DNA from: a phage | DNA length: 64,000 bases | Reading direction: 5' to 3' (one strand) | Sequence record: PZ347775.1 | Shown here: in pieces, positions 55,807 through 61,393 of the stretch | Numbering within the stretch: the stretch's first letter is position 1 | How the letters are laid out: every line of letters starts with the position of its first letter | Translations under genes and position numbers: made by a program | The notes under the pieces: model-generated | The model's database searches: none | What the model was told of the DNA's origin: nothing | What the model saw: the letters and a program-made list of their open reading frames with translations, nothing else

Positions 55807-57903
55807 TTATCCTTGAACGAACTTGTAAGGCATGTTTGTAATATCTATGCAAGACGCAATAATTCCAAGAGATGATTCTACTTTTTGTTTAACATTTGAT
55901 GAAACAAATGATGCAAAGTCAACTCTGTCTTCTATTTCAATATCACCTGTCATTGCAACTACTTCACCAGTTTCCATTAGACGGTCACCGTCATAAATGA
56001 CTGATTCGGTGAGTTCTTCCGTAGTCATAACTTCAGCTTGAATGAGTTTTGTATTATTAGATGTTGTTCCGTCGTTATTAGAAGCATCAGTTATTTTATT
56101 AACTTTGACCATCAATCCGCGTGGTAGAATAACTTCAGCTTCTGTTGCTATTCCGAGACTTCCTGGATATACAACATTAACTTTATGAGCTCCATCAATT
56201 GCCCATCCTATTTGAACTTTAACGTATTCAGGATTTTCTTTATACGCTCTTATTTCGTTTGGATTAATAGTTATTCCTTCTTCATTTTTATCAACTGTTA
56301 ATTCATTACGAGCTTCTGGTTCTAAAAGACCAATACCAGCATGTGTAATTCCAAAACGTCCAAAAATGATAGGAGTTAAAGAAGTAGATACAAAATTTCT
56401 GAAATAGAACACTTTATTTTTAACTAGTGCTTCGTATATAGGAGCAGTCATACTTTGTGCACGATAAACTGTAATGCCTTCCGGTATACGGTCACCATTT
56501 TCAAAAGCTGAATCTAAGTTATTTATAGCAGATTCAATTTCTTTTTCACTCATTACATCATATCGTTCTGGATTGTAGCGTCCTAAAAGAAGATTATTGA
56601 TGTCAGTATATCCTGAACCACAATACTCTCTAATGCCGCGCTTTTGTGATGGAGTATATTTAGAACCATCACGGGCAATAGTAATATCAATCATTGGACC
56701 TGCACCAATTCCAGAAAAGCTATAAATCATTCGTTTGAGGAATTTAGTTTTTGCTGCGTTCCAGGAATTTTTAGTTATTTCTTCCCAGACTTCATCTGGC
56801 TGTCCTTTACGGGTTTTATTATGTTTATCAAGCCAAGTATCTTTATATTCTTCAAAGAATTTATTAATAGCTGCTGCATACTTCTCTAAACATTTTATTG
56901 AAGTAGTTGGTTCATTTTTGATCGCATTAAGAATTACATCTTTAATTTTTTCAGAAACTTCATTAACCTCACTTTTTGAAAAGAATTTATAATCATAGTG
57001 AAGTTCATCTGCAGTTCCTTCGGCAATAATTTTTGCTGCCTTAGTTTTAGAAGCCAATGAATTAATTCCAAGTTTCATTTCTTCTGCTTCGGGAATTAAA
57101 GGAGCGGTAGCAGGTTTATTGAAATTAGCTGCGGTAGATTCATACTTCTGGAATAATTCACTTTCAAATCTAGAAGATTCCAATGACTGACTTTGTGCAA
57201 TTGCTCTACGGGAAATTTTAACTTTAACGATTACAGCTTGGTCAGAACGTTTATCATTTTCTTGCGCAATAGATGCAGCAATTGCCTCATTTTTAGTTAC
57301 TTGAGCTCCAGTATCTTTATTGATATAAACATCACCGACCTTCGATTCAACTTTAGTAAAGAGCTCGGTGCTAATTTCCGGAACTCCTGGAATGTCTTCT
57401 AGTGATACATTTTTGCGATGTATAAGAATATATGCATACTTTTTATCGTAATCCCAGAGTTCCTTAAGAAGGACGTATCTGCCACCCGAACGACTACGGA
57501 TAAGTCTATCAGCAATAACTTGAATTTGTCGAGCTTGACCAGCAGTTTTAGACTTAAGAATACGGAGCATACAGGCATCAATTTTATACTGACGCATCGT
57601 CTGCATTGCAACAGTAAAAACTGAATTGATGTAATTAATTGGGCTTGGACCGAGACCTTTCAATTTAGCAATTGAACCTTTAGCAGTTAATGTAAAAGGA
57701 ACAATATGCATCATTTTATCGCCCATTTTTAAATCGCGATTAGTATCACCTCCAGATGTATAGGTACATAAACGAAAGCCTGGTTGTTCAATTGCGTCAT
57801 CAACATGAACTGAAAAAATTTGCGGTATTTTCTTCTTTGGATTTAAGTTTGTAATCGGAAGAGTAGTATCTTCGTCAAATAATTCTGTAATAAGTTCCAT
57901 CAT
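55807..57903 (-). CDS. alt: Alt ADP-ribosyltransferase, paralog B (698 aa), the copy nearest gene 30
   Basis: N-terminus M-MELITELFDED; R-S-ExE motifs (VYRAQ, FVSTSL, EAEVILPRG); late promoter and SD upstream. Confidence 0.9.
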   Translation of the reverse strand: MMELITELFDEDTTLPITNLNPKKKIPQIFSVHVDDAIEQPGFRLCTYTSGGDTNRDLKMGDKMMHIVPFTLTAKGSIAKLKGLGPSPINYINSVFTVAMQTMRQYKIDACMLRILKSKTAGQARQIQVIADRLIRSRSGGRYVLLKELWDYDKKYAYILIHRKNVSLEDIPGVPEISTELFTKVESKVGDVYINKDTGAQVTKNEAIAASIAQENDKRSDQAVIVKVKISRRAIAQSQSLESSRFESELFQKYESTAANFNKPATAPLIPEAEEMKLGINSLASKTKAAKIIAEGTADELHYDYKFFSKSEVNEVSEKIKDVILNAIKNEPTTSIKCLEKYAAAINKFFEEYKDTWLDKHNKTRKGQPDEVWEEITKNSWNAAKTKFLKRMIYSFSGIGAGPMIDITIARDGSKYTPSQKRGIREYCGSGYTDINNLLLGRYNPERYDVMSEKEIESAINNLDSAFENGDRIPEGITVYRAQSMTAPIYEALVKNKVFYFRNFVSTSLTPIIFGRFGITHAGIGLLEPEARNELTVDKNEEGITINPNEIRAYKENPEYVKVQIGWAIDGAHKVNVVYPGSLGIATEAEVILPRGLMVKVNKITDASNNDGTTSNNTKLIQAEVMTTEELTESVIYDGDRLMETGEVVAMTGDIEIEDRVDFASFVSSNVKQKVESSLGIIASCIDITNMPYKFVQG

Positions 57904-57923
57904 ATCCTCTCTAGTGTTTATTC

Positions 57924-57931
57924 TATTTATA
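57924..57931 (-). promoter_or_regulatory. T4 late promoter TATAAATA upstream of alt
   Basis: Exact motif on minus strand about 20 nt upstream of the alt start. Confidence 0.5.
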
Positions 57932-57937
57932 AAATTA

Positions 57938-57955
57938 AAGGCCCGAAGGCCTTTA
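57938..57955 (-). terminator. stem-loop AAAGGCCCGAAGGCCTTT between the 62-aa ORF and alt
   Basis: Perfect hairpin immediately upstream of the late promoter. Confidence 0.4.
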
Positions 57956-58141
57956 ATAATCTAATGGTAAGAGAGTACGGTATATTTCAAACTTCGGACC
58001 TTTTTCATAGGCATCAAATGTTTCTGTAAATTTATTATAAGCATATGCATCTACAAATTCGAGAATGACTTGTGATACAGAAGTAGAAACATCTCCACCT
58101 TCTTTTTGAGCAATGACAATTGTTTCTAAGTAAGCTTTCAT
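57953..58141 (-). CDS. hypothetical small protein (62 aa) between DNA ligase and alt
   Basis: ORF overlapping the ligase stop by 4 nt (translational coupling). Confidence 0.5.
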   Translation of the reverse strand: MKAYLETIVIAQKEGGDVSTSVSQVILEFVDAYAYNKFTETFDAYEKGPKFEIYRTLLPLDY

Positions 58142-59601
58142 AGACCAGTTACCTCATGAAAATCACCAAATACATCCTCGAATGTATTAGCTTTAGTTTT
58201 ATCTTCACGTAAACGAATCGCAATCGGAAGAAATAATTTAACGTAATCAGTGCGGCCGTCAGATTTTAACCAACCATTGCATTCGCACTCTAGAATTTTT
58301 CCAATATAATAATTTTGGTTTTCCATAATGCGAGTACGGTCAAGTTCATGTGATTTTACACCGGCTTTATCTTTTAAGCCTGAACCAGCATTCACTTTAA
58401 TTTTTCCACACTCTGATTCAAGAATAAATCCACCGGCTTTAGTAGGGTCTTTACGGTGAGGATAAATTCCTACAATTTTTAAATCAACATCAATTACTTC
58501 TTTAAATTTATAGAGATTTTTTGAACGAGCATTTTCCCACAATCCATCGGTATTTTTGAGAATAATACCTTCAAGACCTTGGTCAATATATTTTTTATAA
58601 ATTACCTTAGCTTCATCTAGGTTATTTACTACCTGGTTTTCAATTAAAATTACTTTATCATATCCTGATGTCATTTGTTCTAGTTTAGAAAAACGTACAT
58701 CATATTTCAAACGAAATGCAGGAAGACCGTATATTTCTACCAACGGGACATAATCCCAGACCTGAAACTTCATGCATTGAGCTTCTTTTTCAGAAATGGT
58801 TCCCTTTAAAGATTTATTGGCGATTCCATTAGAAGTAGTACGAGATTCCGCTACTTCGGCGAATTCTTTAGCTTTACTAATTTCAGGATAAGCATCAAAA
58901 AGAAAATCTAGGCCTTCTGGTTCCTTTTTAACTTGCTCATGGTATACCAATTCGCCATCAATTAACACACCTTCTGGATGAATCTGGCGGGCTTCAGCAG
59001 TCATTTTGATTAACTCTTCCTTAAGAAGATCTAATCCTAGATATTCATTACCAGCTCGTGATAAAAGACGAACATCATCTAATTCATCGCCTCGGACTTC
59101 AGCAAAACACCGAGCTCCATCTGCTTTTAACTGCGCAAAGGCTGGAAACTTGATATTCTTATTAATGCCCTTTTCATCATAAGAACTTGCCAGCATTTGA
59201 GGTTGTTCAGGAATTAAACCTGGCCAAACTTTATTTGCAATAGATACTGAAGCACCGCATTCAAGGTCTCGCATCATAACTCGACGCAAAACTTCAACAT
59301 CATCCTTTTTACCATCAGTGATATATCCAGTTAATTCCTCAATTGCAGCATTTCCAGTCAATTTCCGAGTAGCTAACGTGAATTCAATGAAGTCGAGCAT
59401 ATCTGTAAGAGTCAACATTCCAAAACTCTGGGTAGCAATACCAGGTTTAGGCCATTTCTTGATATAATACTGTAACCCACGAGAATAAGTTAGACGATAT
59501 ACTCGTTTAAGCAATTCATTATCTTTATTCTTTTCAAGAATTGCTTGCTTCTGCTTAGTTGATCCAATAGATGCTATTTCATTCAGAATTTTAAGAATCA
59601 T
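58138..59601 (-). CDS. 30: gp30 ATP-dependent DNA ligase (487 aa)
   Basis: Adenylation lysine motif in FAQLKADGARC; sequence recognised as T4 DNA ligase. Confidence 0.97.
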   Translation of the reverse strand: MILKILNEIASIGSTKQKQAILEKNKDNELLKRVYRLTYSRGLQYYIKKWPKPGIATQSFGMLTLTDMLDFIEFTLATRKLTGNAAIEELTGYITDGKKDDVEVLRRVMMRDLECGASVSIANKVWPGLIPEQPQMLASSYDEKGINKNIKFPAFAQLKADGARCFAEVRGDELDDVRLLSRAGNEYLGLDLLKEELIKMTAEARQIHPEGVLIDGELVYHEQVKKEPEGLDFLFDAYPEISKAKEFAEVAESRTTSNGIANKSLKGTISEKEAQCMKFQVWDYVPLVEIYGLPAFRLKYDVRFSKLEQMTSGYDKVILIENQVVNNLDEAKVIYKKYIDQGLEGIILKNTDGLWENARSKNLYKFKEVIDVDLKIVGIYPHRKDPTKAGGFILESECGKIKVNAGSGLKDKAGVKSHELDRTRIMENQNYYIGKILECECNGWLKSDGRTDYVKLFLPIAIRLREDKTKANTFEDVFGDFHEVTGL

Positions 59602-59867
59602 TGTTCATCCTTCAGAGTTTGATTTACAGCTCTATTATAAATCAATTCATCATTAAGCTCAGTCAAAGACTTATGATATGTAGTTCTAACTTTATTTCCT
59701 TGCATCCAGTGCTTGACGTAAATGAAACCTTGCTCTACACATTTTTTAAAAATTCGTTCGTCTTTTTGAGCTCGGAATTCTGGATTGCATCTAAAAAATT
59801 GATTTACGTGACCGTAATCACGCGTAGTATTACCTTCATTTTCATAAATAGTGTGAACGACAAACAT
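59598..59867 (-). CDS. hypothetical protein (89 aa), 30.1 position
   Basis: ORF overlapping the gene 30 start. Confidence 0.6.
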   Translation of the reverse strand: MFVVHTIYENEGNTTRDYGHVNQFFRCNPEFRAQKDERIFKKCVEQGFIYVKHWMQGNKVRTTYHKSLTELNDELIYNRAVNQTLKDEQ

Positions 59868-60730
59868 TAGAATGCTCCTTGGAAAATATTATCACCACTA
59901 GTAAATCTATTAAAATACCCTGCATCACCAGGCTTAGTATAACTCCACGTATGGAATGGATTCATATGATACGGGTGTGTATAATATGGATTATATGGAT
60001 GTGTATAATATGGATTATACGGATTAAATCCAGGAGTTCTCCAGGTAGTGTTCCAACGAAAAGAATCGTTTTTAACCATCTTCTCAATTACATCTTTTAT
60101 AGCTTTTTCACTATCAAAACTTTCTTTATTTTCCTTCGGTGAAAAAAGTTTATTTTCTACATCATTCCATGTATAAACTCGCTGAGCAGTTTTTGGAATA
60201 TTGTCACGCTCTCCTCGCGCCATCCAATAAACAGGAACATTTAATATTTCATTCGCATGATCGCAATGGTGAGCAAGATCGTCAATATAACAAATTACGT
60301 TATATTTCTCTTTTGCCTTTTTGAATAACTCTTCTTTTGAAGAATCATGACCACACATCATTACTTCTGAGAAGGCACCAGGAAAAAGAGCATTCAAATT
60401 AAATTGACGATTCAACAGAGCGTCAATAGAATCACCTAATGCTGTAACAGCTACAAAATTATAATCTTCTTTTAATTTGTTAATTACACACAGTGCATCT
60501 TTATATGGAGACAAATAACGAATAAAATCTGAACGATTGTATTTTTCAATTAACTTGACGCCAAGTTCTTCATCACAATTAAAGAGTTTACCCGGAGAAA
60601 TAAATTTCTCATCTTGGATCATTTTTAAAATATGTTCTAACGGAAGATTATATTTCTGAGCAAAATAAGGAAGGCCTGATTGCCAGCTTAAACATACTCC
60701 ATCAATATCAGTCAAAATAGTAGGCTTCAT
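59867..60730 (-). CDS. HAD-superfamily-like hydrolase (287 aa) with repeated C-terminal octapeptide, 30.2 position
   Basis: HAD motif I ILTDIDGV and DD motif IDDLAHH; C-terminal YNPYYTHP x2. Confidence 0.6.
   Translation of the reverse strand: MKPTILTDIDGVCLSWQSGLPYFAQKYNLPLEHILKMIQDEKFISPGKLFNCDEELGVKLIEKYNRSDFIRYLSPYKDALCVINKLKEDYNFVAVTALGDSIDALLNRQFNLNALFPGAFSEVMMCGHDSSKEELFKKAKEKYNVICYIDDLAHHCDHANEILNVPVYWMARGERDNIPKTAQRVYTWNDVENKLFSPKENKESFDSEKAIKDVIEKMVKNDSFRWNTTWRTPGFNPYNPYYTHPYNPYYTHPYHMNPFHTWSYTKPGDAGYFNRFTSGDNIFQGAF
59977..60024. repeat. 2 x 24-bp direct tandem repeat (23/24 identical) within the HAD-like gene
   Basis: GTGTATAATATGGATTATATGGAT / GTGTATAATATGGATTATACGGAT. Confidence 0.8.
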
Positions 60731-61185
60731 AGAGAGTCTCTTAATAGGTTTAACACATCAATAAATTCAGCTTCGGTTAGTATTGTATCATCTTTTGTTA
60801 GACCACTAGCCATGCTGTGCTTCAAAACTTTTCCTTTCGAGGCTTGTAATGCATCACGAAAGCCCCTGTTTTGGATCGCTGCTTCAAAATATGCATTTGT
60901 GTATAATTCTTTCCATGCTTCGGAATATCTTGAAAACGGAGTTCCAAGCCAGAACAACGTGCCACGGTCCTGAGCTCTTGCATAAGACCTTCCAGCTTGT
61001 TGGGCGGCAAGCCCGGATAACCCAAATATGCGTCTTTGCTGTTCAACATTTTTCACCTTGCATCCTTGGAGGAATCCTTCGAGACCTCCAAATTGGATAC
61101 CGTCCATAACAAAAGGCCATTGGGCGAAATTACTTAATGCACATGATGGCCATCTAAAATTGCTTCTAATCTCTAACTCAGACAT
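60727..61185 (-). CDS. NADAR/YbiA-like (DUF1768-type) protein (152 aa), 30.3 position
   Basis: N-terminal block ALSNFAQWPFVMDGIQFGGLEGFLQGCK resembles the YbiA/NADAR signature; assignment from memory of the family. Confidence 0.55.
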   Translation of the reverse strand: MSELEIRSNFRWPSCALSNFAQWPFVMDGIQFGGLEGFLQGCKVKNVEQQRRIFGLSGLAAQQAGRSYARAQDRGTLFWLGTPFSRYSEAWKELYTNAYFEAAIQNRGFRDALQASKGKVLKHSMASGLTKDDTILTEAEFIDVLNLLRDSL

Positions 61186-61393
61186 CTTTAATACTTATAA
61201 TTTCAATATCAGCCCAATGACCATAACTTGGTAAACGGTCTTCAATAGATAATCCGCCATCATATTTAAGCATTTTAATTGTCATAATATATGGCTCTAA
61301 ATGGTCTTCAGTGAGCGGAGAGACATCAGTCACACGATAAGTAACTTCGACCATTTCCGTGCCCAGTAATTTCTGGATTAATTTCTTAAACAT
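61178..61393 (-). CDS. hypothetical protein (71 aa)
   Basis: ORF in minus-strand early operon. Confidence 0.5.
   Translation of the reverse strand: MFKKLIQKLLGTEMVEVTYRVTDVSPLTEDHLEPYIMTIKMLKYDGGLSIEDRLPSYGHWADIEIISIKDV

Follow-up and report, generated by a model that had tools for sequence, protein, structure and literature searches.

The question raised by this locus is whether phage genes that lie side by side also act in one pathway. In the window, which is the whole 64,000-nucleotide stretch analyzed (sequence record PZ347775.1), a sequence-only reading had pointed to a YbiA/NADAR-like open reading frame and a neighboring frame with HAD motifs beside a DNA ligase and two Alt transferases, and had proposed that they form a local cluster of nucleotide and ADP-ribose chemistry. 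Both frames and the motifs quoted from them were found where that reading had placed them (Table 1). The account favored here, to which a probability of roughly 0.85 is given, is that 30.3 is the ortholog of T4 AdfN, that 30.2 encodes a separate NT5C-like HAD phosphatase, and that their adjacency is lineage-specific and does not reflect a shared pathway.

The locus belongs to a T4-like phage of the genus Tequatrovirus, and its gene order is the same as in T4, running along the minus strand as 30.8, 30.7, 30.6, 30.4, 30.3, 30.2, 30.1, gene 30, alt.1, alt, and a second alt paralog. The 2-kb stretch around 30.3 and 30.2 was 98.3–98.6% identical to that of Shigella phages SH-1, SH-2, and A2, and ~94% identical to that of many other relatives. 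From 30.4 to the ligase, every gene overlaps its successor by 1–8 nt, an ATGA being common to 30.3 and 30.2. No terminator-like site was detected between 30.4 and the ligase in the terminator scan, and promoter-like and terminator-like matches across the region showed no excess over shuffled sequence in the scan. By their layout, the genes from 30.4 to the ligase look like a single co-transcribed, translationally coupled block.

Table 1. Features of the locus (positions refer to the window)
Feature	Position	Strand	Remarks
30.4	61178-61393	minus	
30.3 (adfN), predicted phage-type NADAR, 152 aa	60727-61185	minus	
30.3 codon E36, predicted catalytic	61080-61078	minus	
30.3 codon K43, predicted catalytic	61059-61057	minus	
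30.3 codon H123, predicted catalytic, phage-type	60819-60817	minus	
30.3', 75-codon other-frame ORF inside 30.3	60822-61049	minus	annotated in T4
30.2, putative HAD phosphatase, 287 aa	59867-60730	minus	
30.2 predicted N-terminal C1-capped HAD domain, residues 1-199	60133-60730	minus	
30.2 motif I, D8/D10	60709-60701	minus	
30.2 motif II, T96	60445-60443	minus	
30.2 motif III, K132	60337-60335	minus	
30.2 motif IV, D150-D151	60283-60278	minus	
30.2 C-terminal tail, residues 200-287	59867-60132	minus	
30.1 (DUF3045), between 30.2 and ligase	59598-59867	minus	PF11243 E=1e-63; T4 gene order
gene 30, ATP-dependent DNA ligase	58138-59601	minus	T4 gene order
alt.1, small ORF between ligase and alt	57953-58141	minus	
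alt, packaged Alt ADP-ribosyltransferase, 698 aa	55807-57903	minus	
second full-length Alt paralog, 685 aa	53746-55803	minus	

The products of 30.3 and 30.2 were assigned to families by profiles, transitive matches, and predicted structures; single-sequence PDB searches with the two proteins gave nothing significant, and neither had a match in NCBIfam or PADLOC. The 30.3 protein was 97% identical to T4 gp30.3 in a gapless alignment (both 152 aa), and the four differing residues (V82T, P89E, K106R, and I125M) leave the catalytic residues unaffected. In Pfam, the protein did not match the NADAR model PF08719 directly but matched PF08010 (Phage_30_3) with an E-value of 4e-69 (231 bits, cut-off 36). 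Homologs of 30.3 were collected (93) and 41 of them aligned; PF08719 was matched by 17 of the 41 (best 1.5e-7), and the family profile matched E. coli YbiA (2b3w; E=0.002) exactly on the N-terminal block in which the YbiA/NADAR likeness had been noticed, so that this likeness is borne out. Structure prediction pointed the same way: the AF2 model built with the family alignment (pLDDT 93.9) has the NADAR fold, a helical core between two small sheets. Across the 41 homologs, E36 and H123 were invariant and K43 was at least 90% conserved, with H123 (LKHSM) placed directly after the last predicted strand (residues 120–122). The protein is full length, ending in NLLRDSL, and its predicted C-terminal helix (residues 138–151) is intact, for which reason an active allele is to be expected.

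T4 AdfN (PF08010) occupies the same slot between 30.4 and 30.2, and has the same E36, K43, and H123 and the same predicted fold as 30.3. By its sequence, 30.3 is the ortholog of T4 AdfN and a minimal phage-type NADAR. At the third catalytic position, His is the hallmark of phage NADARs, while Glu is found in YbiA and Asp in DarG1 (PMC11543638, Schuller et al. 2023; PMC11125620). The 30.3 protein has this His, in contrast to the Asp of the DarG1 NADARs (BC4488 family; Geobacter lovleyi 8bat) and the Glu of the YbiA-type NADARs (E. coli YbiA 2b3w; Phytophthora 8bau). It is also a bare core that lacks the N-terminal extension of DarG1, and the T4 NADAR has been described as the core domain alone, without the extra elements of DarG1 (PMC12945103). 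Unlike DarG1, the phage NADAR is an orphan gene with no DarT toxin partner, and AdfN-T4 cannot substitute for DarG1 in uninfected cells.

For the enzyme activity and the DarTG1 phenotype of 30.3, this account relies on published studies of the T4 protein, which is 97% identical. The gene was renamed adfN by Johannesman et al. (Nat Commun 2025; PMC11825919). In that study, T4 required adfN for resistance to DarTG1, expression of adfN restored the plaquing of RB69 despite DarTG1, and purified AdfN stripped ADP-ribose off DarT1-modified DNA (PMC11825919). AdfN was impaired by E36A, by K43A, and by loss of the C-terminal helix, and the RB69 allele, which stops 15 residues early and has lost this helix, was inactive (PMC11825919). 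T4 gp30.3 was found to hydrolyse guanine-ADP-ribose in vitro (Toxins 2024, PMC11125620), and T4 NADAR activity has been reported on guanine-ADP-ribose in both DNA and RNA (PMC11125620, PMC12945103). The idea that a phage NADAR could reverse DNA ADP-ribosylation by DarT-type toxins has thus been confirmed by experiment for T4 AdfN (PMC11825919, PMC11125620, PMC12945103). As for the toxin, it stands for DarTG1, which targets guanine, but not for DarTG2, which targets thymidine and is not countered by AdfN (PMC11825919). The function of 30.3 as an anti-DarT NADAR is already known (published 2023–2025), and a reading of sequence alone can recover a real counter-defense gene, here a NADAR set against a DarT toxin.

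In the mechanism proposed here, the host toxin DarT1 would place ADP-ribose on the N2 of guanine in phage DNA and so block replication. AdfN would then cleave the N-glycosidic bond, by which ADP-ribose would be freed and guanine restored, and replication could resume. Catalysis would depend on E36, K43, and the phage-specific H123, and the C-terminal helix would be needed for full activity. A phage with an intact and probably active adfN should resist DarTG1. AdfN-T4 fails against DarT1 outside T-even infection: in uninfected cells it could not neutralise DarT1, T5 and Bas25 were rescued only slightly by it, and full function was seen in T-even infections (PMC11825919). The authors of that study proposed that AdfN-T4 needs an extra T-even phage protein (PMC11825919).

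The 30.2 protein (287 aa) was 90% identical to T4 gp30.2 (278 aa), the length differences all falling in the C-terminal tail. It had no match at E≤1 in Pfam or NCBIfam and none in PADLOC, and its PHROG family (phrog_420) has no function assigned. PF00702 was weakly matched by 10 of 34 close homologs (best 3.5e-4). Although a direct HAD match in Pfam was thus lacking, intact HAD motifs and a HAD fold were found. The four motifs come in the correct order in the alignment of the 34 homologs, in which D8, D10, and G11 of motif I (D8-I-D10-G-V) and K132 were invariant, and T96 and D150-D151 were at least 90% conserved; D8 and D10 were also invariant in 72 wider homologs. In the model, motif I sits at strand 4–8, T96 closes strand 91–96, helix 133–142 follows K132, and D150-D151 close strand 145–150, all within a Rossmann-like HAD core whose active site is covered by a large helical C1 cap. 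An Asp at position +2 of motif I is the mark of phosphatase-type HADs. Alignment and model together identify 30.2 as a genuine HAD-fold phosphatase with its predicted catalytic set intact and Asp at +2, and the HAD motifs reported earlier for this frame are upheld.

The substrate specificity of HADs is notoriously hard to predict from fold, and the nucleotidase assignment of gp30.2 comes from its nearest structure and sequence neighbors, several of which are only 'putative'. The match of the 30.2 family profile to dNT-1 (2jao) was marginal (E=0.07). An exhaustive profile search with gp30.2 yielded 1,339 cluster representatives, and the distant representatives P0330 and P0335 (~1e-20 to the gp30.2 profile) exceeded the gathering cut-off of Pfam NT5C (PF06941). 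This model was matched by 36 of 72 sampled relatives of gp30.2 and is not reached by the 30.2 protein itself. The joint profile of the sampled relatives matched 3bwv over its full length (E=2e-6) and human mitochondrial deoxyribonucleotidase at ~3e-3. Structural neighbors outside the protein's own family, drawn from a viral library, were mostly annotated as 5' nucleotidases, and a few GenBank depositors have labeled the 30.2 gene 'HAD-like hydrolase' or '5' nucleotidase'. Literature searches returned no paper mentioning gp30.2, and no experimental study was found.

From these relatives and the model, gp30.2 is most likely a nucleotide monophosphatase. It would be a separate, Mg-dependent DxD HAD phosphatase with a helical C1 cap, nearest to the NT5C 5'(3')-deoxyribonucleotidase clade. 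It would most likely dephosphorylate a small nucleotide-like phosphomonoester, for example a (deoxy)nucleoside monophosphate, this substrate being inferred, and would serve phage DNA and nucleotide metabolism beside the ligase. As a well-defined putative enzyme, gp30.2 is the only new leverage that the locus offers: knowledge of its substrate would supply a missing piece of T4 nucleotide metabolism, and it could also bear on why AdfN-T4 works only in T-even infections.

Compared with the NT5C family (PF06941; 3bwv; human cdN and mdN), gp30.2 has an extra C-terminal extension of ~90 residues that is mostly predicted to be disordered. This tail consists of one helix (residues 207–220) followed by a predicted-disordered stretch rich in Tyr, Pro, Asn, and His, and pLDDT was below 50 for residues 250–287. 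Compared with the T4 tail, it has an in-frame insertion of 30 nt and an in-frame deletion of 3 nt, and a 24-nt tandem repeat (2.3 copies, 59969-60024, minus strand) duplicates NPYYTHPY and gives one extra unit relative to T4. In other genera, the tail is absent or different, and from these comparisons it looks hypervariable between strains. Near the C-terminus of gp30.2 and after a variable linker, a motif of the form ~(G)-I-E-Y-L-x-R-Q-P-T-A was seen in representatives of several genera (P0028, P0039, P0051, P0057, and the T4-like P0001), and it has diverged to AGYFNRFTSG in the phage studied here; this motif may be a docking peptide for some partner. Among the distant relatives, P0245 (591 aa) and P0308 (660 aa) are much longer proteins in which the HAD domain forms the C-terminal part, preceded by 380–500 N-terminal residues that had no Pfam match, and such fusions might hint at the function of the HAD domain.

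For the question of the cluster, 77 loci encoding gp30.2 relatives were fetched from viral contigs and their flanks annotated. In 72 of the 77 loci, 30.2 had DNA ligase downstream in the same orientation, and in 68 the two were at most 600 nt apart. A NADAR gene was located upstream of 30.2 within 4 kb in 37 loci (directly adjacent in 22), the other 40 having none within this distance, and an Alt-like gene was present in the flanks of 56. With tblastn, 1,511 phage records were found to carry NADAR and 1,439 to carry gp30.2, and the genus counts for the two were almost the same. In Straboviridae the two genes are both near-core, and their co-occurrence therefore carries little weight. In the Karamvirus Cronobacter phage Pet-CM3-4, the NADAR gene lies among tRNA genes (70742-71191), and in the Jiaodavirus Klebsiella phage JD18, it lies in or near the tRNA region (57656-58105). 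In these two genomes, gp30.2 and the ligase are encoded near 126–130 kb and NADAR at ~58–71 kb, i.e., 55–70 kb apart, which suggests that the NADAR gene has moved within Straboviridae genomes. With NADAR this far off in other genera, the cluster is lineage-specific synteny and not a conserved module: the conserved partner of 30.2 is the ligase, and the adjacency of NADAR and Alt is a feature of the lineage. A conserved functional module of alt, ligase, HAD, and NADAR was accordingly rejected, and the functional cluster of ADP-ribose chemistry suggested by the sequence-only reading did not hold.

The relation between the two genes could nevertheless be closer than the synteny implies if gp30.2 and AdfN were a functional pair, with gp30.2 being either the T-even-specific factor needed in vivo or a processor of the released ADP-ribose or its breakdown products. 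The ATGA overlap suggests translational coupling, in 37 of the 77 loci, from several genera, a NADAR gene shares the strand of 30.2 and precedes it, and the genera in which the two are near-core coincide. The T4 NADAR is also core-only, without the extra elements of DarG1, and its full function in T-even infections alone has led to the proposal of an additional phage protein (PMC11825919). Against such a pair stand the 40 loci with no NADAR within 4 kb of 30.2, the distant position of NADAR in the tRNA region of Karamvirus and Jiaodavirus, and the much tighter linkage of 30.2 to the ligase (72/77), and phosphomonoesterase chemistry has no obvious role in N-glycosidic cleavage; the pairing is regarded as very unlikely. 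In another reading, gp30.2 is a DNA-end 3'-phosphatase that readies nicks for the adjacent ligase in the manner of the HAD domain of T4 Pnkp. The two are alike in having a HAD core and a DxD motif, in being phage-encoded, and in their link to nucleic-acid repair. Capped (C1) HADs, however, generally use small-molecule substrates, and capless ones such as Pnkp act on macromolecules. T4 Pnkp is capless and acts on polynucleotide ends, whereas the large helical C1 cap in the gp30.2 model favors a small molecule as substrate. In sequence and structure, gp30.2 is best matched by nucleotidases and not by Pnkp, and T4-like phages already encode Pnkp (pseT), so that an end-healing role is considered unlikely.

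With two Alt paralogs near the NADAR gene, and Alt-like genes in the flanks of 56 of the 77 loci, NADAR might instead mainly reverse or trim the phage's own Alt ADP-ribosylation of proteins or RNA and not DarT damage. Alt acts on arginine residues of proteins and so makes a linkage other than guanine-ADP-ribose, and the NADAR gene moves away from alt in other genera. The DarTG1 phenotype was shown directly by genetics (PMC11825919), the T4 NADAR has been reported to act on guanine-ADP-ribose, both in DNA and in RNA, and phage NADARs are absent from the cytidine-ADP-ribose removers in a 2026 Toxins summary table (PMC12945103). No NADAR assay on arginine-linked protein ADP-ribose was found in the published NADAR work consulted (PMC11825919, PMC11125620, PMC12945103, PMC11543638). 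The trimming of Alt products, which had also been put forward from the sequence, found no support, and we give it hardly any credence. The remaining alternatives concern counter-defense by gp30.2. It could be a nucleotidase that destroys a nucleotide-derived alarm or signal, such as the modified dNMP m6dAMP, as the host HAD phosphatase MisB dephosphorylates m6dAMP and thereby silences the Metis defense, and the nucleotidase-like gp30.2 is encoded among early-gene homologs and adjoins a known anti-defense gene. Wild-type T4, T2, and T6 nevertheless have 30.2 and remain restricted by Metis, and the mutations that allow escape from it lie in denA and not in 30.2; on these grounds gp30.2 was rejected as an anti-Metis m6dAMP phosphatase, and the alarm-destroying nucleotidase as such is judged highly improbable. 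Taken more broadly, as either the T-even-specific partner of AdfN or a phosphatase acting on nucleotide-derived host alarm or toxin products, with its variable, predicted-disordered tail docking a phage or host protein, a counter-defense gp30.2 is still distinctly unlikely. The preferred reading remains that of a known anti-DarT NADAR next to a separate nucleotidase-like phosphatase.

In relatives down to ~80% identical at the nucleotide level, the 30.3' frame was kept open (12 of 13), and its first ATG was lost in several of them. Synonymous variation of 30.3 was not reduced in the overlap (0.71 inside vs. 0.67 outside), and with the first ATG often lost, 30.3' was not supported as a constrained overlapping gene and showed no trace of selection. 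The two Alt transferases noted nearby are both present at full length, in tandem on the minus strand. The alt product was 70% identical to T4 Alt over its full length, with a single difference in the N-terminal ~245 residues and a diverged C-terminal catalytic half, and the second paralog, which was 41% identical to T4 Alt, is found at a site where T4 has only the decayed remnants alt.-1 and alt.-2. The small alt.1 product matched Pfam PF24647 'Phage blade protein' (E=2e-29), an unexpected name among early-gene homologs.
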